Shown: positions 1,101 through 40,189 of the stretch, one piece after another
How positions within the stretch are numbered: position 1 is the first letter of the stretch
Layout of the letters: each line of letters opens with the position of its first letter
Assembly: GCA_017449215.1 (NCBI GenBank)
Contig: JAFSJY010000070.1
Span: forward strand, 887-64,886
DNA from: Acholeplasmatales bacterium
Lineage (GTDB): Bacteria; Bacillota_I; Bacilli_A; Acholeplasmatales; Anaeroplasmataceae
Direction: 5' to 3'
DNA length: 64,000 nucleotides
Translations under genes and position numbers: made by a program
The notes under the pieces: model-generated
The model's database searches: none
Seen by the model: the letters and a program-made list of their open reading frames with translations, nothing else
Told to the model about the DNA's origin: nothing

Positions 1101-1441
1101 GAAAACGTAATTTCATTTTTCATAATAACTTAAAAAGCCTAAAGCAATACACATGCTTTATCCCATGTTAATTTATATAAGAACAATCAACACATAATAC
1201 TGAACAAGTCAAAAGGATGCTTCCTATACTGCAACAATATATTGGTATTAAACCATTTTACTATATTTTTATTCCTTTTCAATCTATTCAAACATCTTGC
1301 CACTGTTACCAGGTTCGGTTACGATACCTACTCTTTTTTCTGATAAAGATAAAGAAAAATTTTATGTTTGGTCAAAAGAAAAAGGTGATTCTAACCATAT
1401 TTTTGTCAAAATCACCTATTTTTACCCTATTTTTGCTATTT

Positions 1442-1512
1442 TTAGTCGTTTCTACGATTTAGTAAGCAGACTGTTTCAACATGTGTCTTTGAAACCCACA
1501 AATAAGATATCA
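1442..1512 (-). repeat. att-like site S1 (minus strand encodes HVETVCLLNRRND*)
   Basis: 1476-1512 matches 11871-11907 at 33/37 nt; translation resembles the RlmD C-terminal HVETV motif used as an integration site. Confidence 0.7.
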
Positions 1513-1667
1513 TTTTTTTATTTAAAAAATTTAGTTTATCTAGAGTAACATTACAGAAATATTATAAAAATATAGAAATAAAGGATGCCAGTTTTTGAAA
1601 CAAATATCATTCCCTTCGCTTTTTAGGCATCCTTAAATTATATTAAATCAAAAAATCGTAATTAATA

Positions 1668-3014
1668 TCATTTAAAAACAAAAGACACAATGTAATATGG
1701 GAAAGTATAAATTTTATTTTTGTATCCGATATTATTAGAACTAAATTTTATTAATTGATCAATATGATATTTATCATAATTATCTAATATGTATGATGAA
1801 GATTTTGATTTTCTGGACTTAGCTTTAACCTCAACCAGACAAACTTTAGATTGATATTTCTGAATAAAATCTATTTCAAGACCAGAATCTTTATGATAAT
1901 AATATAATTTATAATTCATTTTTGAAAAAGCATCCGCTATAACATTTTCATAAATTGCACCTTTACCATTCCCCATTTTTCCGTTAATTATCTCGATTGG
2001 AATATCATCATCCAACATTGCAATATATAATCCAGTATCATTAACATATATTTTAAAAATATCATTATTTGAAAATGAATCAAAAGGAATTTCAGGGGAT
2101 GATAAATTATGACATAAAGATATTAAGCCATAATCCTCAAGCCATTCAATTGATGTCTTATATTCTCTCCCCTTTGCATTCTTGGCTATTGTCGAATATT
2201 GAAATTTTTGATTTTCTTTAGCTAATTGTCGTGGAATAGAATGAAAAGTCTCTAATATTTTAGCTTTTGCAAAATCATCAACTATTATTTCATTATTATC
2301 ATTTAGATGTGTTCCAAAATCCGACTCAAAATCCAATAATATTCTTTTTTGAATTTTTCTAACTTCATTAAAATCATTAGATGTAATATACTTATCTACA
2401 ACTTCTGGCATTCCCCCTATACATAAATACTTATTATATAGATTTAACATTTCATTATGAATAAAAGGCTGAATAGGCTTTAAATTAGCTAAACTAATCT
2501 TTAAACTATTAATTATTTCTTCATTAATACTATTTGCCCAAAGAAACTCTTCAAAATCCATTGGTTTCATTTCCAAGAAATCTTCAAAACCAACAGGAAT
2601 ACCTCTTGAAGGTTTCTTTGTAATTCTAAAATTTTTAATTCCTAATAAAGAGCCTGTTGCTATAACATCATATCTACCATCTTCAGCAAAATATTTTAAT
2701 GCTGCCCTTGCATTAGGGCAATCTTGAATTTCATCAAATATAAACAATGTCTTATTAGGTATCAGTTTTGCATCTTTTTTTCTTAATGTTATTGCAAATG
2801 TGATTTGATTTATATCAAAATCACCATCAAATATTGCATGTAAACTAATGTCTTTTCTAAAATCTAAAAAAATAACAGAATCATAATTATTTTTTCCAAA
2901 CTCTTTAACAATTGTAGTTTTTCCAATTTGCCTTAATCCTTTTATTATTAATGGCTTATGTTTGGGAGTATTTTTCCATTTTAATATTTCGTCATATATT
3001 TTTCTTTTAAACAT
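1668..3014 (-). CDS. AAA_14-type ATPase with DUF4143 / PD-(D/E)XK-like C-terminus
   Basis: GLRQIGKT Walker A, LFIFDEIQ Walker B, ATGSLLG, GGMPEVV, DTGL, EIDF...EVK. Confidence 0.9.
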   Translation of the reverse strand: MFKRKIYDEILKWKNTPKHKPLIIKGLRQIGKTTIVKEFGKNNYDSVIFLDFRKDISLHAIFDGDFDINQITFAITLRKKDAKLIPNKTLFIFDEIQDCPNARAALKYFAEDGRYDVIATGSLLGIKNFRITKKPSRGIPVGFEDFLEMKPMDFEEFLWANSINEEIINSLKISLANLKPIQPFIHNEMLNLYNKYLCIGGMPEVVDKYITSNDFNEVRKIQKRILLDFESDFGTHLNDNNEIIVDDFAKAKILETFHSIPRQLAKENQKFQYSTIAKNAKGREYKTSIEWLEDYGLISLCHNLSSPEIPFDSFSNNDIFKIYVNDTGLYIAMLDDDIPIEIINGKMGNGKGAIYENVIADAFSKMNYKLYYYHKDSGLEIDFIQKYQSKVCLVEVKAKSRKSKSSSYILDNYDKYHIDQLIKFSSNNIGYKNKIYTFPYYIVSFVFK

Positions 3015-3035
3015 ATCATCACTTCCTAGCTACAA

Positions 3036-3113
3036 TTTACACCTTTTTCAACCGAAAGTCAAACAAGATTTACACTTTTTTATAGCAAAAAAAGGATTTC
3101 GCTAACACTTTTT
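3036..3113. repeat. Three degenerate direct repeats (TTTACAC(C/T)TTTTT) at exact 33-bp spacing upstream of the ATPase
   Basis: Copies start at 3036, 3069 and 3102. Confidence 0.7.
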
Positions 3114-3213
3114 ATGATTGATATCTAGGTACTATGCAATTCACTATTGTTTGGATTAGATATAAATGATTCGATTCTAGTATTATCACAATTGAACTTG
3201 AACCGTTAACGAC

Positions 3214-3309
3214 CCCCTCGAAATCGATGGGTTTAAAATTAATATTGTTTATTTGCTCCCATAATTTTAAAAACTCTAATGTATCTACTTTTGGCATCCA
3301 ATTTGCAAT
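3214..3309 (-). pseudogene. KilA-N domain protein fragment
   Basis: IANWMPKVDTLEFLKLWEQINNINFKPIDFEG matches the recalled KilA-N motif NWMR..TIEFLGLWE..NNPNFKPIEFDG; no full gene present. Confidence 0.7.
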
Positions 3310-3393
3310 TGAAATCGGCATAGTTAAGCCATTTATTTGGTAGACTTGTCATTTTCGGGGTCGATAGAGCACACTTGAACAACCGTCTCAACG
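3306..3393 (-). repeat. att-like site S2 (core GTTGAGACGGTTGTTCAA = VETVVQ) plus long arm
   Basis: 88 nt closely matching 11791-11876 (few substitutions, one 2-nt indel). Confidence 0.8.
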
Positions 3394-3458
3394 AGTTATC
3401 CAAAAAACACCCTGATTAAGCACATTAAATAAGTCAACTTGAAATGTAAAAAAGCAAA

Positions 3459-4730
3459 TTATTGCTTTAACATATTAATAGGTATAACAAAAATTCCATC
3501 TTTTGTCTTATACAAAGGTCCACATGCAGTTATTACTGCTAAAAAGGAAGGTTCTTTAAATCTACTATAGTCAATTTTATTCTTTATTTTTCTAAGAGAT
3601 TCTAGTCCTTCATTAATTAAGTTTTCACCACCAAGTTTAACTTCCAACGCAGCCCAATTACCATTTTTCATATGTATTACAGCATCACACTCTAATCCAT
3701 CTTTATCTCTATAATGATATAAATTAGCTTTTAATCCTTGTGTATATATTCTTAAGTCTCTAATTACCATGTCCTCAAAGAATAATCCCATTGTATTCGT
3801 ATCATTAATTAAATCATTGGGAGAAATACCAAGTGAGGCAGTCGCTATTGATGTATCGACAAAATGTCTAGTCGGAGTAGTTCTTATAGCTGTTTTAGAT
3901 CTCAAATTAGGATTCCAAGCATCTAAATCCATTAAGACAAACAAGTTTTCTAATTTTTGAATATAACTTGTTAATGTTTCATCATCAATACTGGTATTAT
4001 CTGATTTCTTTATGTCAGATAATATTGTAGTATATGCGGCTTCAGAGGAAATATTTCTAGCAAATGAACGTATTATTAATTCGGCATATTTCCTATTATT
4101 AAAATAATTCTTTTCATCGCGTGATTTATAGTTAACCAATCCTTCATAATAATTATAACTAATTTCTAATGAATCTTTTTTATCAACCATTAAAGATGTT
4201 GGCCATCCACCACGACAAATTAAATATGCAATATCATCTAAAGTAATTCTATCATTTAAATCAAAATAGTCTTTATCAGGATTTTCAAATAAATCATTTA
4301 TTGATACTAAACCATTTGAATCTCCTGATTCATATAACGAAAACGGAAACATAACTACCCTTGAAAATCTTCCCTCGCCAGAATGAATAATTTCATCATA
4401 GTTTGCTGGCTGAACAGAACCAGTAAATAGAAATTGACCAAATTCATTTCTTTTGTCTACTTCATCTCTAACCTCATCCCATATTTCAGGAATATTTTGC
4501 CACTCATCGATAAGAACTGGTGTCTCACCTACAAGTGCTCTCTTTATATTTATACTATATAATTGAATTTGTCCTTTAGTTGAGAAACTATGTTCAGATT
4601 TAGCCATCATCATACACGTGGTTGTCTTACCACAATACTTCGGTCCAGTGACAAGTACTGCACCTGATGTTCTTAATTTTTTATTTATTAATTCTTCAAC
4701 AATTCTTTTTCTATATTTTTCATTATCCAT
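3459..4730 (-). CDS. AAA_14-type ATPase with DUF4143 / PD-(D/E)XK-like C-terminus
   Basis: GPKYCGKT, LIDEWQ, FTGS, GGWP, FVDTS, ECD...LEVK; ATG 4730 preferred over the GTG at 4739. Confidence 0.9.
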   Translation of the reverse strand: MDNEKYRKRIVEELINKKLRTSGAVLVTGPKYCGKTTTCMMMAKSEHSFSTKGQIQLYSINIKRALVGETPVLIDEWQNIPEIWDEVRDEVDKRNEFGQFLFTGSVQPANYDEIIHSGEGRFSRVVMFPFSLYESGDSNGLVSINDLFENPDKDYFDLNDRITLDDIAYLICRGGWPTSLMVDKKDSLEISYNYYEGLVNYKSRDEKNYFNNRKYAELIIRSFARNISSEAAYTTILSDIKKSDNTSIDDETLTSYIQKLENLFVLMDLDAWNPNLRSKTAIRTTPTRHFVDTSIATASLGISPNDLINDTNTMGLFFEDMVIRDLRIYTQGLKANLYHYRDKDGLECDAVIHMKNGNWAALEVKLGGENLINEGLESLRKIKNKIDYSRFKEPSFLAVITACGPLYKTKDGIFVIPINMLKQ

Positions 4731-4779
4731 AGACTTCACCCATCATTATTTTACTATAATTCGGTGAGCAAATCAACAA

Positions 4780-4844
4780 AAAACCGAAAGATTGGCTATA
4801 GCAAAACCGAAAGATTGGCTATAGCAAAACCGAAAGATTGGCTA
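4780..4844. repeat. 23-bp tandem repeat (AAAACCGAAAGATTGGCTATAGC) x2.8
   Basis: Units at 4780, 4803 and 4826 (last truncated), perfect identity, no spacers. Confidence 0.95.
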
Positions 4845-5009
4845 AATTTATGCATTTTTCCAACCTGTTTCAACGACAAAAATTGCATTTTTCTAACTAT
4901 TTTTTGCCGTTTATATTGCATTTTTCAATACTTTTATAATACTTATTAAGTATATATTCAATTAATCTATAATTACTTACTCGACTTATTTTCAAAATCT
5001 TTCCGCGAA

Positions 5010-5146
5010 AGGCAGCACCATTTGAAATTGCCGAAATATATTCACCTATTTCATCTTTCGAAAACCAATTTTCTTTAAAAACAAAACCACTCATATTCAT
5101 CATTAAAAGTTAACAAATTTTCTAGAATATCTATATATCTATTCAA
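5010..5146 (-). pseudogene. N-terminal relic of a Schlafen/AlbA_2-domain protein
   Basis: TTG start with AAGGAG SD; LNRYIDILENLLTFNDEYEWF then frameshift to FKENWFSKDEIGEYISAISNGAA, like recalled AlbA_2 N-termini (EWxEFKxN...IGEYISA.SN). Confidence 0.6.
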
Positions 5147-5169
5147 ATTAATTCAGCTCCTTTAAAAAT

Positions 5170-5537
5170 TCATAGTATAGAAGGACTTGACCCCTTTGTA
5201 TACATCCATGCAATTTCATCTAAAAAGATAACTTTCTTTTTTTGGCTGCTATTTTTAATTAATTCTTTTAGGCAACTAAATGCTTTGAACCAATCATTCA
5301 AGTCCTCTTCAGGTTTTAAACCATACTCTTTTAAAGATTCAGAAAAAGCATAAAGTTGTTCATTTTTCTTTCCATTATAAATACCTGCATATCTAAATAT
5401 AATACTTTCATTAAATAATTCATTAATTAAATATGTTTTCCCAATTCTACGTCTTCCATATATTGCTACAAAAGATGATTCTAATGAATTATATTTTTCC
5501 ATTAATTCTTAATCTCATTTTCTCTACCAATTAACAT
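5170..5537 (-). pseudogene. Truncated, frameshifted AAA ATPase (same subfamily as 1-961)
   Basis: MLIGREK* then frameshift into MEKYNS...AIYGRRRIGKT...VIFLDEIAW; ends shortly after Walker B. Confidence 0.85.
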
Positions 5538-5551
5538 AGCTGTCACCTTTT

Positions 5552-5586
5552 CCGCGAAAACTTATAAAAACTAGTCTTTTTCGCGG
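5552..5586. promoter_or_regulatory. Inverted repeat CCGCGAAAA-N17-TTTTCGCGG upstream of the ATPase pseudogene
   Basis: Read directly; operator role inferred. Confidence 0.55.
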
Positions 5587-5637
5587 TTTTGTAATTTAAA
5601 TATCTGCTTATGAATATTTCTATTTTTTATTAAAACC

Positions 5638-5808
5638 TTTATTTGGTAGACTAATTTCATTTAATTATCGTTTAACTAAAAGAGCAACCATCTCAATATG
5701 CATCGTTATTGGCCTTGTAATATCTAAAAATATAGGTCGTTTTTTAGTTAATATTTGACTTGTTTTATTTAATAAAAATGGGGTGTTTTTTCAACAGACC
5801 GTCTCAAC
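5638..5808 (-). repeat. att-like sites S3 (HIEMVALLVKR*, 5665-5700) and S4 (VETVC*, 5791-5808)
   Basis: TTTATTTGGTAGACT shared with S2/S5; ACCGTCTCAAC core shared with S2. Confidence 0.6.
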
Positions 5809-5922
5809 AGTACCATAGATGGTCAGCAAACCCCAAATTCTTTTAATATATAAATCTACTTCAAAAAAGATCAAGAAATTATTTATTCTTGACCTTATTT
5901 TATCATATTAAATTATAATATC

Positions 5923-6040
5923 TCAATGCTCTTCAATTGCTTTGGCTTTTTCAGGTGGACAACTAATATGTCTAGCATTTATCATCTTTGTTAACAACTG
6001 TTAATTTCATTGCTACATAAATCTTACTTAAATCAACTAA
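5923..6040 (-). pseudogene. Relic of the alternative RlmD C-terminal extension (..SxLYIA..CPPEK..AI.E..)
   Basis: Fragments LSKIYVA and MINARHISCPPEKAKAIEEH* in different frames; similarity recalled, not computed. Confidence 0.45.
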
Positions 6041-6136
6041 ATTATTTTTATCATTAAACCTTGTAAAGAAAATGGATGCTGTTTCGTGTAATAAGAAAAA
6101 GCACCTCAATTAAGAGATGCTACAAGAGAAAAATTA

Positions 6137-7081
6137 TTACAATACAATAACTGTTTTTCCATCAACCTTATGATTATCAATATCAATTAAAGCTTGCTTT
6201 ATATCAGCAAAGTTATAGACCTCACCATATGTTGGATTGATCTTATATTTATTGATGTAGCCCATCATACTATCTATGATTTCCTGTGATGGATAATTAG
6301 AAAAGAATCCAGTTAAATAACAGCCATTCGGTATTTCTTTAATAGGATCAAATCCATCCATTAAGTAAACTTTACCAAGAAGCCCTGTTTGACATACAAT
6401 CCCATCTTTATTCAAGCATTTAAGAGAATCTCTTAGTGTTTTTGGTCCTATCAATTCTAGAATTTTATCAGCTTTTACTCGTTTTGATAAATTGCCATCA
6501 TCAATAATTGCCTTATCACATTCATCTAGTAATGATAGTTTTTCTTCGTTATGTGTTGTTCCTATCACTTTGCATCCTAAAGCTTTTGCTAGTTTTATAG
6601 TTGCATATCCTAAGGCGCACGTTGCTCCTCTAATTAACAATGTGTCTTCTTTTTTTAATTTCAAGCATTCAAATAATGAACCATATGCAGTGAAATATGT
6701 TTCTGGTATTGCACCTAACTTATCCCATGACAAATCTGATTTAATTTTAAAAATAGTTTTTCTTGGCAATAAAGCATATTCGGCATAACTTCCATTAAAG
6801 CTTCTACCCATTCCGCCCATTAGTGCCATTACTTTATCGCCTTTTTTTAAGTCAGTATTTGAGGGATTAAAAACCTCACCAACACATTCAATTCCTGGAA
6901 TGATAGGCTTTTTTATGTAATCATTATTGATTTCAAATGTTCTTAGAAGTTTTTCACTATGGTTTATTCCAAAAGCCTTAACCTTAACTAACACCCAGTC
7001 GTCTTTAACTGATGGTATAGCTACTTCAGTTAATTCTATATCTTTTGAATCAGTTACTTTATCTATTAATACTGATTTCAT
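6137..7081 (-). CDS. Medium-chain dehydrogenase/reductase, quinone-oxidoreductase-like (zinc-binding ADH family)
   Basis: VKVKAFGINHSE, IPGIECVGEV, LLIRGATCALG, GKTVI; lacks the Zn-binding Cys cluster. Confidence 0.85.
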   Translation of the reverse strand: MKSVLIDKVTDSKDIELTEVAIPSVKDDWVLVKVKAFGINHSEKLLRTFEINNDYIKKPIIPGIECVGEVFNPSNTDLKKGDKVMALMGGMGRSFNGSYAEYALLPRKTIFKIKSDLSWDKLGAIPETYFTAYGSLFECLKLKKEDTLLIRGATCALGYATIKLAKALGCKVIGTTHNEEKLSLLDECDKAIIDDGNLSKRVKADKILELIGPKTLRDSLKCLNKDGIVCQTGLLGKVYLMDGFDPIKEIPNGCYLTGFFSNYPSQEIIDSMMGYINKYKINPTYGEVYNFADIKQALIDIDNHKVDGKTVIVL

Positions 7082-7962
7082 AATAGTCTTTCGCTCCTTC
7101 TATGAATTAATCTTTTTCTATCTTTTTGGACTCCTCTTGCGTATTTTATTTCAGGATAACCGAATCCAACTATTAAAGGCATGCAGTGATTATTTGGAAT
7201 ACCTAACATATCTTTTGCTTCAGGTGATAATTCATTTAATACTTCAGCTGAATATGACATAATTAAAGTTCCAAGTCCATATGCATTAGCGATTATTTCA
7301 AAATATGTTGTTGCTATTATACATTCAACTTTTGCATCTTCTGCCCATTTGCCTTCAGCTCTTTTATGCGCAATAAACAAATGAGGTGCTCCACAAAATA
7401 GTAAATCATCTTTTCTAACTGTCTTTTCGCTTTCTTTCATCTTTGAATAATAAAAATTAGAAAAAGATGATGTATAAATCCCTTTCTTTGCTAAATCATC
7501 CATCTTTTTATATGCAACCTGTCTTATTTCATCTACAGCATCTTTATCATCAATAACTGTATATTCTACACTCATTGAATTACCACCAGTTGGAACACTT
7601 TCCATACAAGATAATATTTTATCTACTATTTTTGAATCGACATTCTTATCTAAATATCTTCTACAACTTCTTCTAAATTTAACAAGTCTTTCAATATCAT
7701 CGGATATTTTATCGCTTGGTGGCAAAGTTGAATCTTCAGGTTGTTTATTAAATATAGAAATAGCACCAGTTGGACAAACCGAAAGGCAGTGTTCACATTT
7801 CCAACATCCACGCCATCCAAATCTTTCAAATGGTTTTATATATGGGTATCCTTCATTATCATATTCAATGACCATACCATTACATACATTTTTGCATTTG
7901 CCACATTTTATACATTTATGTTTATCAACTATAAAATTGCATTTATATGATATATCTTCCAT
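7078..7962 (-). CDS. Nitroreductase family protein with N-terminal 2x[4Fe-4S] ferredoxin domain
   Basis: CIKCGKCKNVC and CWKCEHCLSVCP motifs; RRSCRRY, PTGGN, GLGT, GYP. Confidence 0.9.
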   Translation of the reverse strand: MEDISYKCNFIVDKHKCIKCGKCKNVCNGMVIEYDNEGYPYIKPFERFGWRGCWKCEHCLSVCPTGAISIFNKQPEDSTLPPSDKISDDIERLVKFRRSCRRYLDKNVDSKIVDKILSCMESVPTGGNSMSVEYTVIDDKDAVDEIRQVAYKKMDDLAKKGIYTSSFSNFYYSKMKESEKTVRKDDLLFCGAPHLFIAHKRAEGKWAEDAKVECIIATTYFEIIANAYGLGTLIMSYSAEVLNELSPEAKDMLGIPNNHCMPLIVGFGYPEIKYARGVQKDRKRLIHRRSERLL

Positions 7963-8792
7963 TATTCTTTTATCTCCTTAATAATTTTTGATATGTCATC
8001 ATTTATTAATAATGATTTATCTTTTATTTCATCAGGTACTTGATTAAAACCTTTATTAATGCATACATAAAAAGCATTCTTAAAATTATAGGTCATTCTT
8101 ATGAATGGATATTTAATTATTACAGGTGTATTAAACCCAACGCCAAGTTCTAAAAATAGCACTTTTTTATCTTTGTTTTTATTTAGAAAGTCTTCATATC
8201 TTTTAGAAGCTTCCTTCCATCCATCATCTTCTACAAACCTATCATCACTTCTTAAATTAGGCATCATTTCACGTCCACAAACAGGACATTTAGGAATTAA
8301 TGCTTGAGGTATTAGTCCATCTTTTAAATTATCAAGCATATTAAAAATTGCCTCTTTATTATCATATGTTTTATTATGACAAGGCTTGCTACATTGAAAT
8401 AGTCCATAATCCCCTTGTGTATAAAATAATCTTTTCTTATCAAAGCCTGAAAGTTGAAATTGATGATCAACATTGGTCGTAATGACAAAATAGTCCTTAT
8501 TTTTAACCAATTCAAATAATTCTTTATACAAAGGTTTAGCGCCTTCTTTATATCTTTGTAAATATATAAATCTTGACCAGTATCCCCATTTTTCTTCTGA
8601 TGTTTCAAAATTATGAAATGATGCAGAATACATATCGGTGTATCCATATTTTTTATTTATATCTTTAAAATTATCTAAAAAAAATTCTCCATCATATATA
8701 AAACCAGCCGCTGTAGATAATCCAGCCCCTGCGCCAATTATGATAACTTCAGAATCATTTATTAATTTCTTTAATCTTTCTATTATAGACAT
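7962..8792 (-). CDS. Class M sirtuin (SirTM-like, macrodomain-linked protein ADP-ribosyltransferase)
   Basis: GAGAGLS, TTNVDHQF, QGDY (Gln in place of the deacylase His), FQC..CH / CPVC Zn site, ELGVGFNTP; ATG 8792 with AGGTGA SD. Confidence 0.9.
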   Translation of the reverse strand: MSIIERLKKLINDSEVIIIGAGAGLSTAAGFIYDGEFFLDNFKDINKKYGYTDMYSASFHNFETSEEKWGYWSRFIYLQRYKEGAKPLYKELFELVKNKDYFVITTNVDHQFQLSGFDKKRLFYTQGDYGLFQCSKPCHNKTYDNKEAIFNMLDNLKDGLIPQALIPKCPVCGREMMPNLRSDDRFVEDDGWKEASKRYEDFLNKNKDKKVLFLELGVGFNTPVIIKYPFIRMTYNFKNAFYVCINKGFNQVPDEIKDKSLLINDDISKIIKEIKE

Positions 8793-9501
8793 CAAAATCA
8801 CCTTCACTAAATAAATCAAATATTACTTTTTTGATATTCTTATTATCTTCTTTTAAATATTTATTTACTGTACTTATTGCAATTAAACTTGCTTTTTCAA
8901 TTGGAAAACCATATAAGCCTGTTGAAAGTGAACAAAAACAAATTGATTCTAATTTCATTTCATCTGCCTTTTTCAAGCAAGATAAATAGCAATTTTTTAA
9001 ATCAATTTCATCTTGTATGCTTCCTTTATATATTGGTCCAACTGTATGGAAAATAAATTTAGATGGTAAATTATATCCTTTTGTCACTTTACATTTACCA
9101 TTTGGTTCATCATATCCTTGAATGAGCATCATATTCATCATGTCACATCTAACCTGAAGTCCGGCAAATGAGTGAATGGCATTATCGATGCAATGGTGTC
9201 CTGGTACAAAGCAACCTAACATTTTATTATTACAAGCATTAACTATCGCATCAGCATTTATTAATGTAATATCACCTTTAAATAAACTTATACCGTCATT
9301 AAATTCTTTAACATCAACTATTTTCTTTTTTGATAATGTTTTTTTTAATACATTATCTTGTTTATTATAGAATTCAGTAGATAAATTAGAAGGCATAGTA
9401 ATATTAAGCAATGCCCTTAATGTATCAAAATCATATCTAAGTTCTTGATTAATATTATTAACTTCTTTTAAATAATCAATACACCATTTTAAATCATCCA
9501 T
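8755..9501 (-). CDS. Zn-containing macrodomain protein (protein-ADP-ribose hydrolase)
   Basis: GDIT, AIVNACN, CFVPGHHC (CX4HXC Zn loop), IDNAIH, IFHTVGP, STGLYGFP. Confidence 0.92.
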   Translation of the reverse strand: MDDLKWCIDYLKEVNNINQELRYDFDTLRALLNITMPSNLSTEFYNKQDNVLKKTLSKKKIVDVKEFNDGISLFKGDITLINADAIVNACNNKMLGCFVPGHHCIDNAIHSFAGLQVRCDMMNMMLIQGYDEPNGKCKVTKGYNLPSKFIFHTVGPIYKGSIQDEIDLKNCYLSCLKKADEMKLESICFCSLSTGLYGFPIEKASLIAISTVNKYLKEDNKNIKKVIFDLFSEGDFDVYNRKIKEINK

Positions 9502-9503
9502 TA

Positions 9504-10532
9504 TTATTTCACCTCATACCAGCATTCAGGATCCACTGCATACATATTGCCACCGCTATAGCCGTATGCTACTGCAGGACATCCTCTACAAAATCTTAAA
9601 AGTGGGCATTTAGAACATTTTTCAAATTTTTCATAAATCCTATATTCATCCATTTTTGGTCCTGTAAATAAATCATATAAATCATCTTCTAAAGCATTGC
9701 CGACTTTAGATTCCATTCTTCTGCATGCATAACATGACCCATCTGATAAGATAGTAAAATGGGCATTACCACAATTGCATCCATCATAAACATAATCATC
9801 ATCAGGATAATCCTTAGGATTAAAACGACCTTGCTCATATAAATACAAAGTCCACAAATGATCTTTATAAGAAAAATATGTGTTTGAATCTTTATATTGC
9901 ATAAATTTCTTGTCACATTCAGAAAGTAGCCACTTATATTCTTGTGGTGCGCAACATACATCTCTATCTTTAAACGAAGGGCAATATCTAGCAAAGGCAA
10001 ATATATCGAAATTAGCTTTTACTACTTCGTCTACTAAATCTGGAATTTCTTTATAATTCCATTTTGAAACAGTAGTCATACATGCAACTTGTATACCTGC
10101 TTGTTGAAGCACTTTTACTTTAGATATAGTTTCATCATATGACCCGATTTGTCTTATTCTATCGTGTGTTTCTTTTAGTCCATCTAAAGACAATTGATAT
10201 TTTCTAACGCCACATTCATACATTTTTTTAGAGTTCTCTAAAGTTATATGAAATGGATTACCGAGTATGGCGATTTTCCAACCTTTTATTTTAATTTTCT
10301 CTAATAAATTCCAAAATTGTGGATGTAATATTGGATCACCACCAGTTATATATAAATATGGTTCTCTATTTGATTTCTTTTTGAAAGTTTCAATATTTTC
10401 GATAACCTTATCCATTTGGTCTAAAGTCATCATTTTAAATTTAGCATGGCTACCAAGCGCATATATATAGCAATGCTTACATCTTTGATCACATTCTTCT
10501 GTGATATGCCATTGAAATGAAAAATATTTCAT
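9504..10532 (-). CDS. Radical SAM/SPASM maturase, ACGX system
   Basis: QWHITEECDQRCKHC (CX3CX2C), TGGDP, SPASM cysteines CNCG..C and CSKC..CRGC..C; adjacent to an ACGX peptide; ATG 10532 with AGGA SD. Confidence 0.92.
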   Translation of the reverse strand: MKYFSFQWHITEECDQRCKHCYIYALGSHAKFKMMTLDQMDKVIENIETFKKKSNREPYLYITGGDPILHPQFWNLLEKIKIKGWKIAILGNPFHITLENSKKMYECGVRKYQLSLDGLKETHDRIRQIGSYDETISKVKVLQQAGIQVACMTTVSKWNYKEIPDLVDEVVKANFDIFAFARYCPSFKDRDVCCAPQEYKWLLSECDKKFMQYKDSNTYFSYKDHLWTLYLYEQGRFNPKDYPDDDYVYDGCNCGNAHFTILSDGSCYACRRMESKVGNALEDDLYDLFTGPKMDEYRIYEKFEKCSKCPLLRFCRGCPAVAYGYSGGNMYAVDPECWYEVK

Positions 10533-10539
10533 AATAAAT

Positions 10540-10585
10540 CCTAAAATAAGGAAAAGGTGCACTATATTTCAAGCACACCTTCAAA
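10540..10585 (-). terminator. Hairpin plus U-rich tract between peptide and maturase (probable leaky terminator)
   Basis: Minus strand AAGGTGTGC-ttgaaatata-GTGCACCTT followed by TTCCTTATTTT. Confidence 0.55.
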
Positions 10586-10589
10586 ATCC

Positions 10590-10790
10590 TTACTTCTTGT
10601 CAGGAGCGCCACAGGCTGAACCGCATGCGCTTGGTTTTGGTTCTTCTTCCTTTTTGTCAGGAGCACCGCATGCACTACCACATGCTGATGGTGTTTCCTT
10701 CTTTTCTTCTTCTGGTTTGTCGTTTGATCCACATGCAGATCCACATGCTGATGTAGCAACATCTTTACCAAATAAATTTTTAAGTGCCAT
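10590..10790 (-). CDS. ACGX-repeat peptide (putative RiPP precursor, 66 aa)
   Basis: Three SACGSACG units with acidic/Lys linkers; GGAGG SD; matches the recalled ACGX-repeat peptide family. Confidence 0.9.
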   Translation of the reverse strand: MALKNLFGKDVATSACGSACGSNDKPEEEKKETPSACGSACGAPDKKEEEPKPSACGSACGAPDKK

Positions 10791-10830
10791 GGTTAATACC
10801 TCCTATAAATATTTGTAGCTTAACTACACT

Positions 10831-10904
10831 TATATTATATCAATGAGATTTTATATTCTTCCCAACAAAATCAAACAAAGTGTCGGAATTTGTGATATAA
10901 TATA
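10831..10904. promoter_or_regulatory. Divergent promoter region, mirror-image -10 boxes (12-bp inverted repeat)
   Basis: TATATTATATCA (10831-10842) and TGATATAATATA (10893-10904), each containing TATAAT. Confidence 0.5.
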
Positions 10905-10929
10905 ATATATTTAATTTGAGGTATAAAAT

Positions 10930-11517
10930 ATGAAGCAATATGAAAAAGCAAGAAACGAAATGAAAGAAAGAATCAGGAAAGCATTTTGGACACTTTATAA
11001 AAAATATAATTATCAAAACATAATGAACGTTAAAGAAGTTACAGACTTAGCTAATGTTAATCGTTCAACATTCTATTTTTATTATCAGCATACGGGTGAA
11101 ATATTAAATGAACTAATAGAATGGCTAAAAGATGAAATTGTTACAATTTATTCTTCTAGAAAAAGACAAGATGGAGATTTTAATGATTTTTATAAAGAAA
11201 TATATGAACATTTTAAATTAAGAAAAAAATACCTTGTCCCTCTTGTATGTGAATCAAGACATCCTGAGTTTGCATTATGGTATAGAAATAATCAAAGAGA
11301 AATGTTTAAAGAGGATATCGGCTTAGCTCATTATCATTTAGATAAAAAGAAAAATAAAATTATCGATATAGCATTAGCTGGTATTATAGAAGAGCAGATT
11401 CAAACATTTGGATATGGCGAACTAACAATTGATGATTCTTTTTACCTTGAATTAGGAACTTTACAAAATGGTTTATTAACTACATTAGAAAAAAGATTTG
11501 ATATAAGAAAAAAATAG
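10930..11517 (+). CDS. TetR/AcrR family regulator, divergent from the ACGX-SirTM operon
   Basis: N-terminal HTH VKEVTDLANVNRSTFYFYY; GAGG SD. Confidence 0.88.
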   Translation: MKQYEKARNEMKERIRKAFWTLYKKYNYQNIMNVKEVTDLANVNRSTFYFYYQHTGEILNELIEWLKDEIVTIYSSRKRQDGDFNDFYKEIYEHFKLRKKYLVPLVCESRHPEFALWYRNNQREMFKEDIGLAHYHLDKKKNKIIDIALAGIIEEQIQTFGYGELTIDDSFYLELGTLQNGLLTTLEKRFDIRKK

Positions 11518-11790
11518 TCAATACTTACGTATCAGCTATGCTTAACTCTGATGGAGGCTCCAAACTGATATAAACCAATCGTTAAAAAGTGTAAGAAAAC
11601 GTTAAAAGGTGTGCGGTTGCAAATTTATGGACCGCACCAGAAAAACAAAAAGGTGCTTATTTTTGCATTTTTGAAGCATTAATAAACACCTTAATTATTC
11701 GATTTATGGCTTAACTAAGCCACTTTTATATAAAATACCTTAATACAAAATTGTATCAAAATATACTATTCATTATGGGGGACCAACAAA

Positions 11791-11907
11791 CAATTGAAAT
11801 TGGCTTAGTTAAGCCATTTATTTGGTAGACTTGTCATTTTTGGGGTCGGTAGAGCAATTGAACAATCGTCTCAACGTGTGTCTTTGAAACCCATAGAAAA
11901 GATATCA
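11791..11907 (-). repeat. att-like site S5 (HVETIVQL), composite of the S1 arm and the S2 arm
   Basis: 11871-11907 matches S1; 11791-11876 matches S2. Confidence 0.8.
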
Positions 11908-12016
11908 CTTTTATAAATATGTATATGGAAATTGGTTACATACATGTCGATTAAATACTAAAAGTTTTCAATTGCTTTTGGAAATAACTTTTTAAAAGTA
12001 TCAATATAGCCATGTA

Positions 12017-12862
12017 TTATTTTTCTTCATATGTAATTTTCCAATTCAAATAGTTTACTAATGCTTCATCAGATCTTATATATCTTCTTTGATGTTTATT
12101 TAATTTTAAAATTTCATTCATATCTTCATTAGACAAACAAAAATCAAATATATCAATATTATCCTTGATATGTTCCACATTTTTGCTCCCAGGAATAACG
12201 ATAAAACCCATTTGTGTGTGCCATCTTAAAACTATTTGAGCAGTTGATTTATGGTATTTATTTGCAAGATTTATAATTATTGGATTATTTAATAATTCAC
12301 CTGTCATATCTTTTCCACCTAGTGGATACCAACTCATAATTTTAATTTCTTCTTTTTTAGTTATTGTTCTTAATTCATCTTGAGGAAAAAATGGATGGCA
12401 TTCGACTTGAATAACTTGAGGTTTAACATCAAATTCAGCCAACACTTCGTTTATTTCACTTTCGAAATTAGAAATACCAATGGCTTTTATTTTTCCCTTT
12501 TTATAAGCATTAACTAATTGTTTATATCCTTCTCTCCAATTTTTAGTTGGCTGATGAATAAATAATAAATCGATATAATTAGTGCCTAATCTTTCTAGTG
12601 TTTCATCGACTGCATTTGGATTTTCATATTCCGTTGGCCATAATTTTGTTGATAAGAAAATTTCTTTTCTATCAACACCTGATTCTTTTATTCCTCTACC
12701 TACTGCACGCTCATTCATATAAGCATTAGCTGTATCAATTAATCTATATCCAAGTTTTAAAGCTTCTTTTACACTATTTTCAGCATCTTTTGGTTCAAGT
12801 AAAAAAGTACCAATACCAACTGATGGCATTGTTATGCCATTATTTAATTTAAATTCTTTCAT
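12017..12862 (-). CDS. Aldo/keto reductase (2,5-diketo-D-gluconate reductase-like)
   Basis: GYRLIDTANAYMNE, STKLW, YIDLLFIHQP, GISNF, IPGS. Confidence 0.93.
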   Translation of the reverse strand: MKEFKLNNGITMPSVGIGTFLLEPKDAENSVKEALKLGYRLIDTANAYMNERAVGRGIKESGVDRKEIFLSTKLWPTEYENPNAVDETLERLGTNYIDLLFIHQPTKNWREGYKQLVNAYKKGKIKAIGISNFESEINEVLAEFDVKPQVIQVECHPFFPQDELRTITKKEEIKIMSWYPLGGKDMTGELLNNPIIINLANKYHKSTAQIVLRWHTQMGFIVIPGSKNVEHIKDNIDIFDFCLSNEDMNEILKLNKHQRRYIRSDEALVNYLNWKITYEEK

Positions 12863-12864
12863 TC

Positions 12865-13590
12865 TTATTCTCCTATCTTATTATATTCTTCGTCACTAAC
12901 TTCTTCTAGCCATTTAGTTTTAGTATCGACACCTGATACTTCAATTGCTAAATGCTGAAACCATGAATCTTTTGTTGCACCATGCCAGTGTTTAACATTT
13001 GCTGGTATATTAACTATATCACCAGGCTTTAAAAATCTAGCTTTTTTACCTTCTTCTTGGTACCAACCATTTCCAAAAACACAAATTAACATTTGGCCTC
13101 CACCAGATTTAGCTTCGTGGATATGCCAATTATTTCTACATCCAGGTTCAAATGTGACATTAAATAAAGGTACTTGTGTAGTTGATAATGGATATAAATA
13201 ACTTTGTCCTTTAAAATAATCAGCAAATGGATTCTTTTCACCAACTGGGAAGATAGATAATTCTAATTCATTATCATCTTTTCCATACACTTCTTCAATT
13301 AATGGAAATGTTGACCATGCTTTTGGCCATCCTGAGTAAAATGCAAGTTGCGTTATTGCTACAACAACTTCAGTTTTTGTCAAACCATGTTTCTTTCCTA
13401 ATTCTAAATGAGCTTTTAATTGTGGATATAATCCTGCGCTAAATAGGGCTGATATAGTTATTAAACTTCTATCTCTTAAATTTAATTTATCTACTCTATC
13501 CCATACTTCACCAAATAATACATCATCATTTAGTTCTGCAAATTTAGGGGCTAAATTACCTAAATATTTTCTTCCAGCGTCTTGTTTCAC
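12865..13590 (-). CDS. Carboxymuconolactone decarboxylase family domain fused to cupin
   Basis: DDVLFGEVW..RDRSLIT..LAFYSGWPKAW; FEPGCRNNWHIH, KHWHGA. Confidence 0.88.
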   Translation of the reverse strand: MKQDAGRKYLGNLAPKFAELNDDVLFGEVWDRVDKLNLRDRSLITISALFSAGLYPQLKAHLELGKKHGLTKTEVVVAITQLAFYSGWPKAWSTFPLIEEVYGKDDNELELSIFPVGEKNPFADYFKGQSYLYPLSTTQVPLFNVTFEPGCRNNWHIHEAKSGGGQMLICVFGNGWYQEEGKKARFLKPGDIVNIPANVKHWHGATKDSWFQHLAIEVSGVDTKTKWLEEVSDEEYNKIGE

Positions 13591-13598
13591 ATTATCAC

Positions 13599-14225
13599 CT
13601 ATTCCTCTATTGATGAAAAATGAGTAAAATATTTTAATTCTTTTTTAGGCATTCCATTTTTTAATTTCTCATTATTTATTGCTTTAATTAAAAAAGCCAT
13701 ATTATACCCAAGATTTCTCATCGTTTGTAATCCTTCTAAATCTCTTTCTACATCTTCCTTTGTAAAACCATGAACCTCATTCCAATATGTAGAAGATACT
13801 ATTGGCATAGAAGAAATGGTAAAATACTTATTAATTTCATCAAATGCAGATGTTGAACCTGCCCTTCTAGATGATATAACTGCCGCTCCAACCTTCATTG
13901 TTTTATCAAAATTTGTACTATAAAATAATCTATCTAGAAGTGATAATAAAGTCGAATTACAACCAGCATAAAATGTTGGAGATCCAATTATTAAGCCATC
14001 TGCTTTTTCAAATTTTACGGCTATTTCATTTACTATATCATTAAAAATGCATTTCCCTGTTTTAGAACAGCTATCACAAGAAATACAACCTCTAATGTCT
14101 TTATTTCCAATATGAATTATTTCAGTTTCGATTTTTTCTTTATTAAGAATATTTTCTACCTCATTTAATGCTCTAAAAGTACATCCATTTGAATGTGGAC
14201 TTCCATTTATAATCAATACCTTCAT
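13599..14225 (-). CDS. Flavodoxin-like / NADPH-dependent FMN reductase family protein
   Basis: INGSPH..GCT, GCISCDSC, GSPTFY, RRAG; TGATG overlap with the upstream gene. Confidence 0.88.
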   Translation of the reverse strand: MKVLIINGSPHSNGCTFRALNEVENILNKEKIETEIIHIGNKDIRGCISCDSCSKTGKCIFNDIVNEIAVKFEKADGLIIGSPTFYAGCNSTLLSLLDRLFYSTNFDKTMKVGAAVISSRRAGSTSAFDEINKYFTISSMPIVSSTYWNEVHGFTKEDVERDLEGLQTMRNLGYNMAFLIKAINNEKLKNGMPKKELKYFTHFSSIEE

Positions 14226-14815
14226 CACCATATCTCCTTTTGTTCATTTGGATCTAATTCTTTAATTATTTTTGCAGGACATCCTCCAACAACCGCATTA
14301 TCCGGTACATCTTTAGTGACAACTGCCCCTGCTGCAATAACAGCGTTTTCACCGATTGTTACACCTGGGCAGATTGTGGCATTCATGCCAATCCAAGCAT
14401 TCTTTTTTATAGCTACTTTTCCATACGTATAAATTGTATGTCTATTGTTAAAATCATGATTAATTGTGGCGATTCTAACTCCTGGGGCAACACTTACACC
14501 ATCTTCAAATTCAATTCCACCAGATGCTGACAGAATTGCTGAATGATTTATAAATACATTTTTGCCAAATTTGACACGATTGCCAAAATCACAAATGAAT
14601 GGAGTTAATATCCTAATTCCATCTAATTTTCTATCAAATAATTCTTCTAAATATTCTATATATTTAGGATCATTAATTGGTGTTTCATTTGCAAGCTGAC
14701 ATAAGCGTCTTGCCCTTATCATTTCATCTGATGCTTCTTTAAAATATGATTCTCTTACATCAGTTGGACCACCTTCATCCATTAATTTATAAACATATCC
14801 CTTTTCGTATTCCAT
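14225..14815 (-). CDS. Sugar O-acetyltransferase (hexapeptide repeat, maltose/galactoside type)
   Basis: PFICDFG, FGKNVFIN, AWIG...PGVTIG..AVIAAGAVVTKDVP. Confidence 0.9.
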   Translation of the reverse strand: MEYEKGYVYKLMDEGGPTDVRESYFKEASDEMIRARRLCQLANETPINDPKYIEYLEELFDRKLDGIRILTPFICDFGNRVKFGKNVFINHSAILSASGGIEFEDGVSVAPGVRIATINHDFNNRHTIYTYGKVAIKKNAWIGMNATICPGVTIGENAVIAAGAVVTKDVPDNAVVGGCPAKIIKELDPNEQKEIW

Positions 14816-15327
14816 CAATATGACTCCTTTATCCATTTTTCTACTTTAGACTTGGATGAATTAACTTGTGAACCTACTATTGCAAGGCCATCTTTAACAT
14901 TAGCTCCTACACAAATCTTTTTTAAATCTCTAACTACACTACCAAGACCTGAGCCTTCATGTGTTGAAAAAGGCATTATAGTTTTACCATTAAAATCTAA
15001 TCTGCTTAATTCTGTAAACATAGGTTGAGGTAGTGTTCCCCAGTAAATAGGGCCACCAATATAAATAACATCATAATCACTAATATTATCTAAATAATTC
15101 TTTAATTCAGGAAGTTCACCTTTTCTTTGTTCTTCTTTAGCTTCTTCTATACAGGTTCTATAATCAGCTGCATAATCTATTTTTCTTTCAACCTTAAATA
15201 AATCTGCCCCTGTTATATCTTTTATATACTCAGCTACTACTTCTGTATTACCTTTTGTGATATACTTCATAGACCCGCCAAAATAATTTTCATCAACTCT
15301 TGAAAAATAAATAACTAATGATTTCAT
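14815..15327 (-). CDS. Flavodoxin
   Basis: YFSR...GNT, YDVIYIGGPIYWG, PFSTHEGSG. Confidence 0.9.
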   Translation of the reverse strand: MKSLVIYFSRVDENYFGGSMKYITKGNTEVVAEYIKDITGADLFKVERKIDYAADYRTCIEEAKEEQRKGELPELKNYLDNISDYDVIYIGGPIYWGTLPQPMFTELSRLDFNGKTIMPFSTHEGSGLGSVVRDLKKICVGANVKDGLAIVGSQVNSSKSKVEKWIKESY

Positions 15328-15330
15328 TTT

Positions 15331-15858
15331 CTATTCCTCCTTAAATTTTTCAATATAATTTAAAACAATTGCTTTTGGATCAATCTCTCCATCAGTAAAA
15401 CACCATAAATTAAGCGCTCCATAATAAACACCTATAATTTCGTTTGAAATCCTTACATCATATAATTCTTTAACATATCCCAAATCGTATGCTAGTTTGC
15501 TTTTACCATAAAAGCTTCCCTGTACTGAGTGACTAAACCATCCCTGACACATCTTAAGACCAGAATCCATGATATGTTTTAATGAATTAATTAAGAAATG
15601 TTTTAATTTCTCATATTTAGAATAATCACCTTCAAGCTTCATATCATCATAGAAAAGATTGATTTGTTTAACTATTAAATCTTCTTTAGATTCAAAATGT
15701 ATATAAAACGCTCCTTTCGATACACCAGCTTCTTTTGTAATAGCTGATACTGATACATTATCAAATCCCTTTTCACCGATAAGCTTTAAAGCTACTTCAA
15801 TTATTTTGTTTTTGTTTTCATTAGACTTAGCAAGTCTTGTCTCGTTATTGTATTTCAT
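15331..15858 (-). CDS. TetR/AcrR family regulator
   Basis: GFDNVSVSAITKEAGVSKGAFYIHFESKEDL HTH. Confidence 0.92.
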   Translation of the reverse strand: MKYNNETRLAKSNENKNKIIEVALKLIGEKGFDNVSVSAITKEAGVSKGAFYIHFESKEDLIVKQINLFYDDMKLEGDYSKYEKLKHFLINSLKHIMDSGLKMCQGWFSHSVQGSFYGKSKLAYDLGYVKELYDVRISNEIIGVYYGALNLWCFTDGEIDPKAIVLNYIEKFKEE

Positions 15859-15864
15859 ATTTAT

Positions 15865-15894
15865 ATTGTATCAATTAATTGACCAATAGTCAAT
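15865..15894 (-). promoter_or_regulatory. Sigma-A promoter TTGACT-N17-TACAAT overlapped by operator ATTGAC-N5-GTCAAT
   Basis: Read directly; ATG lies 7 nt after the -10 box. Confidence 0.7.
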
Positions 15895-15946
15895 AAATTA
15901 GATAAAAAAACACCAAAGCAGGAGGATGCCATGGTGTTAGTCATTT

Positions 15947-16066
15947 CTATTTCCTTATTTCTTTTCCGTTATTGAAAATGAACGTGATGCTTCCATCTTG
16001 ATTAACTACTGCTTTTTCAATCAAGTAAGACCAAATATCAATGTCAAATTCTTCAATTAAATTAGG
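15947..16066 (-). pseudogene. C-terminal relic of a large serine recombinase
   Basis: PNLIEEFDIDIWSYLIEKAVVNQDGSITFIFNNGKEIRK* resembles the recalled tail EFD..LW...VE...V..DG.I.F.FK.G.E. Confidence 0.65.
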
Positions 16067-16192
16067 CTTCTTATCCACCTTAATTATATGCATTTATGAG
16101 CGATATTCGATACAAAATACCTCAATATCACATAAAAAAATACAGCTTAAACCCATAAGATAGGTAAAAAAGCCTAAAGCAATACACATGCT
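16067..16192. repeat. Duplicate of the ATPase upstream region (970-1157)
   Basis: 16067-16091 vs 970-994 (23/25), 16100-16129 vs 1067-1096 (29/30), 16167-16192 vs 1132-1157 (26/26). Confidence 0.85.
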
Positions 16193-16198
16193 CTAGGC
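16166..16198 (-). terminator. Intrinsic terminator ending the 16.2-37.7 kb run
   Basis: GCCTAGAGCA-loop-TGCTTTAGGC followed by T6 on the minus strand. Confidence 0.75.
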
Positions 16199-16207
16199 CT
16201 TCTATTT

Positions 16208-37859: not shown

Positions 37860-37930
37860 AAAAACACCTTAAGATTATCTCCTAAGGTGTAATTAAACTA
37901 CTTCTTTAATGTTAAAGTTGTTACTGATTC
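37860..37930. repeat. Exact 71-bp direct repeat of the rlmD 3' end plus terminator (copy 2 at 40152-40222)
   Basis: Base-by-base identity; encodes ESVTTLTLKK* and the hairpin ACACCTTA..TAAGGTGT. Confidence 0.95.
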
Positions 37931-37968
37931 GACGATGCAACTAAAGTTTTGTGGTTGAGAGAATATGT

Positions 37969-38784: not shown

Positions 38785-38788
38785 ATTA

Positions 38789-40034: not shown

Positions 40035-40189
40035 AATCTATATTGTGTACATTTTTTGCTGTTTTGATGTACTACAATACACCAAAATACATTTTTTACA
40101 TACACGTTCCTTTCGTTTTTATTATAGCAGTAAATATTGAATAATGCAAGAAAAAACACCTTAAGATTATCTCCTAAGGTGTAATTAAA

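Follow-up and report, generated by a model that had tools for sequence, protein, structure and literature searches.

A stretch of 64,000 nucleotides (nt) from an uncultured Anaeroplasma (contig C63, positions 887-64886, of a 2.05-Mb genome in 88 contigs with 29.5% GC), referred to here as the window, was found to carry a row of gene cassettes at positions 1186-16069. We consider it likely that this region is a fossil tandem array of small, mostly recombinase-less elements, which were stacked by repeated site-specific integration at a site of the kind found at the 3' end of the methyltransferase gene rlmD (rumA). The original prediction, made from the letters of the window, had proposed that repeated integration built the array and that the integrase has since decayed. 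This proposal is supported by partner swaps between flanking arms that are exact to one GA dinucleotide, by the dyad symmetry of those arms and by two relics of large serine recombinase (LSR) genes, with the type of recombinase being inferred.

All sites and arms are read on the minus strand, on which every gene but one in the first 16 kb of the window lies, and cargo genes were annotated with Pfam. A loose degenerate pattern for the core of the sites gave 41 matches and was unspecific in this AT-rich genome. The arms were therefore followed by homology and are named accordingly (A, B, B', C, W', A', Y, Y', Z, H and others). They were searched for in 60 related genomes and in metagenome contigs, and the genomes compared include Anaeroplasma bactoclasticum ATCC 27112 (G026), of the same genus.

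Five sites with an HVETV-like reading were predicted in the array and all five are present, with the minus-strand readings as claimed. S1 reads HVETVCLLNRRND followed by a stop, has its central GA at 1477/1476 and joins arm A to arm C. S2 reads (L)VETVVQ... with the GA at 3389/3388 and joins Y to B, while S3 reads HIEMVALLVKR and a stop with the GA at 5694/5693. S4, reading (T)VETVC and a stop with the GA at 5805/5804, joins Z to Y', and S5, reading HVETIVQLLYRPQK and a stop with the GA at 11872/11871, joins A to B. S5 had been described as a hybrid of arms shared with two other sites, and this was borne out: its left arm resembles the left arm of S1 (85% over 48 nt) and its right arm resembles that of S2 (90% over 91 nt, E about 1e-28). 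When the genome was translated in all six frames, H[VI]E[TMC][VI] was matched 11 times, and RlmD-type tails were observed in five of these matches only, namely S1, S3, S5, the end of the intact rlmD on contig C20 and a site on contig C27.

The position of the crossover was mapped by aligning 20 junctions. Homology between the contexts was found always to switch within GTT-GA-GAC, which corresponds to the Val-Glu codon pair of the H-V-E end of RlmD. The GA of S1 lies 11 codons before the stop, and the tails after the GA range from 4 to 13 codons across the sites. The same junction was observed in intact rlmD genes, both at locus L146 and in the window's own rlmD paralog (40221/40222). The vanG and ICE-r elements, which carry an LSR, are inserted in rumA at a GA dinucleotide and leave an 11-codon rumA 3' segment (PMC4120198), and streptococcal integrative mobilizable elements (IMEs) with serine integrases use one common site within rumA (PMC5704250). 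The earlier statement that the rlmD (rumA) 3' end is a target of LSR elements in Bacillota agrees with these reports, and the crossover position observed here matches that of the published rumA elements (PMC4120198; PMC5704250).

The arms were then found to be mirror images of one another. Each left arm was compared with the reverse complement of each right arm, outward from the GA and without any shift, giving 400 pairs, and the null was set by 200 shuffles of the right arms together with a control that mirrors without complementing. At least 12 matches in the best 14-nt window were reached in 20 of the 400 pairs, with a chance in shuffled arms of 8e-5 per pair. The best of all the pairs in a shuffle scored 12 in 7 of the 200 shuffles, and the control never went above 10. 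The best pair is A/A' (14/14), with A on the left at S1, C27 and L136 and A' on the right at L136 and L175. It is followed by W/W' (13/14; left in G012, right in G026 and L175) and Z/Z' (13/14; left at S4, right at site 11074 of G025:C46), and then by Y/Y' (12/14; left at S2, right at S4) and H/B' (12/14; left in L178 and G025, right at S3). The full palindrome, A-GA-A', is present in the metagenome contigs L136 and L149. Serine-recombinase att sites have long inverted half-sites around a central dinucleotide. The sites in the array have the same layout in sequence, a central dinucleotide between imperfect inverted half-sites, and arms A, B, C, W', A', Y', Z and H were observed in many combinations that switch at the GA.

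S3 and S4 are the weakest of the five sites by sequence. However, the 111-bp unit from S4 to S3 is also present in an independent genome (G012:C63), where its neighbours on either side differ and each switch lies exactly at the GA. The left partner in that contig is a different arm, and on the right the same left arm that meets B' at S3 is joined to A' instead. The two sites are therefore regarded as valid.

Two arms define the ends of an element. Arm A (about 130-140 nt; 11873-12008 and 1478-1605) is a right end, and arm B (about 100 nt; 11773-11870 and 3298-3387), consisting of an RlmD-like tail and a hairpin, is a left end. Contig C27 of the same genome carries a 1.5-kb segment between unrelated sequences and away from any rlmD, with B at its start and A at its end (96% to the S1 copy). 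Because this segment runs from B to A, B...A is an element and the A-core-B order at S5 is the junction expected between tandem elements. The C27 mini-element has short tandem repeats (CAGCCGGTATCAGCCACTAT-like; L007 6290-6360) and a 161-aa open reading frame (ORF) which has no Pfam match.

The arms recur in 20 of the 60 genomes searched, nearly all of them from the same genus, and in eight metagenome contigs, and the cargo beside them is unrelated from place to place. Arm A was observed next to B (S5), C (S1), W' (G026:C6, L134 and L142), A' (L136 and L149) and DNA unrelated to rlmD (C27), and the left partners of arm B include A, Y, E and others. As an example, the cultured A. bactoclasticum has a comparable, co-oriented array on scaffold 6 (about 58.4-66.4 kb) with sites at 8484, 9961, 12549 and 16379 of L030, which carries Fic, TetR-flavodoxin and TetR-esterase-Phd cargo and has no rlmD and no recombinase there. 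Another array, with AlbA_2 and AbiEii cargo, was found in G025:C46, and an A'...A mini-element of 0.7 kb in L175. Locus L146 represents the canonical integrated form: an intact rlmD paralog is followed by the GA core, 3.2 kb of cargo (HipA-like, Ham1 and a KAP fragment), arm A, the core again and a displaced 11-codon tail. The arms of this genome and of A. bactoclasticum are 93% identical, far above the 66% amino acid identity of their RlmD-1 proteins, which implies that the arms have spread horizontally or are under strong constraint.

In the mechanism that we propose, each element has a left arm (types B, B', C and Y') that mimics the final 5-13 codons of rlmD together with its terminator, and a right arm of its own type (A, Y or Z). 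The rlmD-like left arm of an integrated element would rebuild a usable target, into which the next element could therefore insert to give junctions of the A-GA-B type. The enzyme would most likely be an LSR that a few elements encoded themselves and that acted on the others in trans, and most units would have lost their recombinase or may never have had one. The array would later have become detached from rlmD. We describe the array as a fossil because the genome has no intact LSR, and it is probably immobile unless a recombinase comes from outside.

The detachment is seen in the position of the array, as no rlmD lies upstream of S5 and the nearest paralog (40190-41554) is 28 kb away. Behind that paralog lies a recombinase-less islet of 2.2 kb (37860-40222) with GNAT, helix-turn-helix and DUF3990 genes. 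The islet is bounded by a 71-bp exact direct repeat which starts exactly at the GA of the L-V-E codons of the paralog (40222/40221 and 37930/37929), the position homologous to that of the five sites.

No intact LSR was found in this genome, where PF00239 matches two small resolvases and PF07508 matches one 378-aa protein on C20 without a catalytic domain. An LSR gene in or next to the element, as LSR elements have, was likewise not found in the window, which holds two C-terminal stubs only. Relic 1 (15957-16069) comprises the last 40 or so codons (KPNLIEEFDIDIWSYLIEKAVVNQDGSITFIFNNGKEI) of a 527-aa LSR family. It matches the LSR on C20, which is truncated, at that gene's 3' end with 95.6% nucleotide identity, and in tblastn it is 84% identical over 45 aa to the intact 528-aa protein P0001 (8e-20). 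More distant intact homologues of this lineage (P0005, 63%) form a two-LSR module. Relic 2 (about 5907-6030) lies about 90 nt upstream of S4 and consists of the decayed last 40 or so codons of a family of 620-770-aa LSRs, followed by a terminator hairpin. It was assigned through the A. bactoclasticum array, as it is 76% identical over 135 nt to G026:C6 12842-12965, which in turn matches the last 63 aa of the G025:C11 LSR in tblastn (68%, 3e-22); the direct tblastn match of this family to the window is weak (E=0.05).

Intact members of the relic 2 family (P0122 in metagenome contig L178 and P0123 in L175, 662-673 aa) have Resolvase, Recombinase and Zn_ribbon domains, and their genes are followed by an AlbA_2 gene. 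They were found in IME-like units of Rep_trans, a UvrD-type helicase, LSR and AlbA_2. In L178 such a unit ends in arm H and a GTTGAGACGG core, and the AbiE cassette behind it has arm H and this core at its end as well. It follows that elements with an LSR do end at this core. A further copy of the unit, in the G025:C46 array, has its LSR deleted from the 5' side and reduced to the 3' end. We also considered arm A as the decayed 3' end of an LSR fused to the tail, as in vanG, but this is unsupported since no LSR of the genus ends in HVE and a stop closes the frame upstream of arm A after 19-26 codons. The genome's single LSR-like gene (C20 35.3-38 kb; L053 7335-10905) is 5'-truncated, lacks the Resolvase domain and lies beside a tyrosine recombinase gene and genes for type I restriction specificity (HsdS), a layout typical of a phase-variable restriction-modification shufflon.

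Several observations weigh against a stack of LSR elements. A tblastn search with 10 LSRs over 21 arm-bearing loci (204 kb) recovered only C-terminal relics and no intact LSR beside an A or B arm. Among the LSR loci scanned in 40 genomes of the genus none is followed by the core, and the contexts of the intact relic 1 homologues P0001 and P0005 show no rlmD-type site. The targeting of rlmD by either relic lineage and the tie of a specific LSR to the A and B arms are putative. In addition, the mirror symmetry is strongest in blocks at 12-35 bp from the centre, a greater distance than for the half-sites of the LSRs studied so far, and arm B is out of register with A, resembling an A' into which 8-9 nt were inserted. 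At the right junction of C27 the expected GA is replaced by TA, and the 71-bp exact repeat around the islet is longer than an LSR requires. Finally, exact-protein look-ups at strain level were made for the NEAT protein, for ATPase_2, for the ATPase of 448 aa and for the VanZ-like protein of C27. Every contig recovered either had this arrangement or ended at one of the repeated arms, with no empty site and no other order of cassettes.

It is possible, and we put it forward tentatively, that Anaeroplasma has a serine-recombinase cassette system in which recombinase-less cassettes of 0.1-4 kb with cognate families of dyad arms (A/A', W/W', Y/Y', Z/Z' and H/B') are captured and reshuffled in trans by the LSRs of IME-like elements at sites of the rlmD-tail type. 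If so, each cassette would bring a new rlmD-like target and the arrays could therefore be seeded and grow away from rlmD.

A rival reading takes the array itself as a working platform for gene capture, a serine-recombinase counterpart of the integron. LSRs from visiting or co-resident elements would capture its cassettes, excise them and reshuffle them in trans, and selection would keep the arms. Between species with core proteins of about 65% identity the arms are 93-96% conserved, although recent horizontal spread alone could account for this. The cassettes can be as small as 0.1-2 kb with single genes, the same arms surround unrelated cargo in more than 15 genomes, and several genomes have arrays away from rlmD. 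However, this genome has no intact LSR, the contigs of this species show no empty site, and there is no common promoter or platform gene. Several arms of the window are moreover decayed or non-cognate, as in the B...Z element or in the register of B with A. We regard a working platform as doubtful. The term integron-like used in the original prediction holds as an analogy for a co-oriented array of small cassettes, but not for a platform integrase or for attC-like single-strand folding, neither of which was found.

We find it unlikely that another recombinase (a tyrosine or Xer enzyme, or an HUH or integron-type one acting on folded single strands) made the junctions, with the LSR stubs as unrelated passengers. 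The two ends of an element do share a core of about 13 nt, CAYGTTGAGAYGG, its GTT is like that of the integron core GTTRRRY, and the 71-bp exact repeat around the neighbouring islet could be read in the same way. The identity at the C27 site, on the other hand, is only about 6 nt. The genome has four tyrosine recombinases but none is near the array, and no PF00589 protein, and hence no IntI-type recombinase, was found at 1-27 kb. Single-stranded arms were found to fold no better than shuffled ones (z -1.2 to +0.7; no formal attC covariance model was run). The symmetry is centred on a dinucleotide with long mirrored half-sites, and the published enzymes at this rumA position are LSRs (PMC4120198).

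It is more improbable still that site-specific recombination played no part and that rlmD ends with their terminators were copied by duplication, gene conversion or homologous recombination. The right arms of the sites are indeed like genuine rlmD-1 3' ends with terminators, and the 130-nt repeat around the whole island suggests homologous events. However, the breakpoints of dozens of independent junctions coincide at one dinucleotide and the left arms are unrelated to rlmD, yet they mirror the right arms, so that homologous recombination alone is insufficient. Elements with two arms also occur at sites outside rlmD. A chimera of the metagenome bin can be dismissed almost entirely, because the arrangement of the window, although other assemblies break their contigs at the repeated arms, is contiguous and identical in scaffolds of several independent metagenome assemblies, including one of 99.5 kb which spans the genes from AKR to beyond ATPase_2.

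The fossil tandem array may be compared with several known systems. The closest mechanistic relatives are the LSR elements of rumA/rlmD (vanG, ICE-r and IME_SpnAP200_rumA; PMC4120198; PMC5704250), with which it shares the target family, the GA about 11 codons before the stop, the rebuilt gene end with the old tail displaced downstream and the possibility of tandems. Those elements are integrative conjugative elements (ICEs) or IMEs of 10-50 kb, found in streptococcus, enterococcus and clostridium, and their right end holds an intact LSR that is fused to the tail of rumA. The units observed here in Anaeroplasma are mostly 0.1-6 kb, have no recombinase and several families of arms, and form an array that is detached from rlmD.

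In architecture the closest systems, together with the accretion of cis-mobilizable elements (CIMEs), are the staphylococcal cassette chromosome (SCC) composite islands, pseudo-SCC and ccr-less elements at the 3' end of rlmH (orfX) (PMC13739063; bioRxiv 10.1101/336396). In both cases an rRNA methyltransferase gene has cassettes stacked behind its 3' end, with internal att sites, and many units have no recombinase, and the SCC enzymes (CcrAB/CcrC) are LSRs. The two-LSR pair formed by intact relatives of one relic lineage is also reminiscent of ccrAB. The differences are the target (rlmD instead of rlmH), the att sequences, the much smaller cassettes, the lack of resistance cargo and an array that is not anchored to its target gene. 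In the CIME model drawn from ICESt1/ICESt3 (PMC5704250), decayed elements keep their attL and attR, newcomers enter the att site at the gene end to give tandems, and mobilisation in cis or trans is possible, as may be the case here. That model involves tyrosine integrases at fda or tRNA genes and typically one or two elements, whereas at least five junctions lie within 10 kb here. CIMEs lack genes for integration and transfer but are still bounded by att sites and lie in tandem with other elements. The S2-to-S1 (B, ATPase, A) and S4-to-S2 (Y'...Y) segments fit this description, with cognate or recurrent arms and no recombinase. Integrons and clusters of attC sites lacking integrases (CALINs) also consist of co-oriented small cassettes, often with single genes and a standard arm, and some of these arrays have no integrase nearby. 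Unlike them, the present array has no IntI, no attI/Pc platform and no attC hairpin, and its arms are double-strand dyads on a dinucleotide.

Tandem accretion at serine-recombinase sites is therefore already known from staphylococcal SCC and streptococcal ICEs and IMEs, as large elements anchored to the target gene. What is observed here instead are cassettes of one or a few genes without recombinase, a few conserved mirror-symmetric arms used throughout the genus and arrays that persist away from rlmD. The cargo across the genus includes DUF4143 and AlbA_2 ATPases, Fic, AbiE and HipA-like proteins and redox operons. The literature searched holds no account of recombinase-less cassette arrays on LSR sites, nor of LSRs in Anaeroplasma. 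If the cassettes do move in trans, they would represent a second, integron-independent route to cassette arrays, in a phylum where, to our knowledge, integrons are essentially absent. This would also account for the many orphan 'methyltransferase fragment' pseudogenes of gut Bacillota genomes. The arm families are natural sets of attP and attB sites for LSR genome-engineering tools.

The sites were predicted to bracket discrete blocks of cargo, and this is true of the ATPase, of the ATPase with relics and of the ACGX operon. It fails for the AKR/flavodoxin block (12017-15858), which lies upstream of S5 and has a site on that side only; its other edge is formed by the LSR stub and the 130-nt repeat, with no HVETV site. 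The genes of this block encode AKR, CMD-cupin, an FMN reductase, a hexapeptide transferase (acetyltransferase), flavodoxin and TetR. Its right end is the S5 copy of arm A. The matching arm in G026:C6 (9831-9972; 93% identity over 142 nt) has a Fic gene as its upstream cargo.

The S5-to-S4 element begins with arm B, of which the tail reads (E)TIVQLLYRPQK and a stop, and ends with arm Z (5806-5836; GGGGTTTGCTGACCATC and 12 nt). As the ends are non-cognate, it is probably the product of a fusion or a deletion. Its cargo (6137-10790) comprises a Cys-rich repeat peptide, a radical SAM/SPASM protein, a macro-domain protein, a 285-aa protein with no Pfam match, a nitroreductase-ferredoxin and a zinc alcohol dehydrogenase, and a 195-aa ORF lies on the opposite strand between the two sites. 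The Cys-rich peptide is a triple repeat, and this largest block of cargo is the passenger of a decayed LSR element. Its status as a passenger may explain a patchy distribution of the operon. The stretch at 11718-11845, covering arm B at S5 and beyond, recurs with 93% identity over 132 nt in a genome of another family (G046:C56; L037 4031-4738), where it sits 180 nt downstream of a tmRNA gene. This location indicates a transfer between families or a different landing site.

Between S4 and S3 lies the Y'...G unit of 109 bp (5695-5803; 111 bp from GA to GA), which carries no cargo and consists of the tail ETVC with its stop, AAAAAACACCCC and an end in GGCCAATAACGATGCATATT. The right arm of S3, B' (5630-5692), has the tail (E)MVALLVKR and a stop with a AGTCTACCAAATAAAGG motif, and in G033:C1 the genuine 3' end of rlmD-1 matches it with 85% identity over 72 nt. 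The S4-to-S2 segment is taken as an element with cognate ends because of the mirror symmetry between Y' and Y (3390-3415; GGGTGTTTTTT and 12 nt). The cargo between S3 and S2 (3459-5502) includes a second AAA_14/DUF4143 ATPase, of 426 aa (3459-4739), three 23-nt tandem repeats (4780-4848) and a truncated ATPase (5170-5502).

The S2-to-S1 segment is, judged by its arms, a B...A cassette. Arm B at S2 has the tail (E)TVVQ... and a GGCTTAAC..GCC hairpin and is 91% identical to C27:5490-5564, and arm A at S1 is 96% identical over 129 nt to C27:6863-6991. The cargo is a 448-aa ATPase with AAA_14 and DUF4143 domains (1668-3014). Beyond S1 lies module C (1186-1475), an RlmD tail reading (E)TVCLLNRRND and a stop with about 260 nt behind it, which forms the left end of a further, truncated element. 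A native chromosomal origin of this flank was considered and is ruled out. On C20 the intact rlmD-1, from its 3' end into the DNA downstream, shares 88% identity with the module over 301 nt, and in G025:C32 another rlmD paralog matches it at its 3' end (88% over 309 nt). As it follows two different rlmD paralogs elsewhere, it is a mobile left-end module.

The 14.9-kb island is flanked by two diverged direct copies (76-86% identity) of the intergenic region between the NEAT and ATPase_2 genes. The left-hand copy, DR1 (16067-16200), lies directly after the NEAT-domain gene (16208-17464), and the right-hand copy, DR2 (970-1190; about 130-190 nt), abuts the start of ATPase_2 (961 downwards). Each copy has a terminator-like stem and a GGGCGATATT...AATATCGCCC hairpin, which is doubled in the left copy, and the G025:C46 array is preceded by a hairpin related to it. 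The two repeats suggest an insertion or rearrangement that would have occurred by homologous recombination. The left edge of the array, a truncation inside LSR relic 1, is a deletion scar.

Scans of IMG/VR with patterns for a viral origin of the arms gave no matches. Rfam and ARAGORN returned no relevant known RNA or tRNA at the sites, and the only Rfam match of DR2 is weak and below the gathering score. In G020:C23 (L102) the contig with rlmD-1 stops exactly in the H-V-E codons (...FPRTSH/GT); the assembly breaks at the att core, presumably because repeated tails come next. Furthermore, positions 11509-11554 are 85% identical over 46 nt to the last bases and downstream hairpin of the tRNA-Leu(CAA) gene of A. 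bactoclasticum, and in G012 the DNA found about 100 nt behind tRNA-Leu(CAA) matches the three 23-nt repeats of 4780-4848. Both may be scars of a second class of integrative elements that targets tRNA genes.

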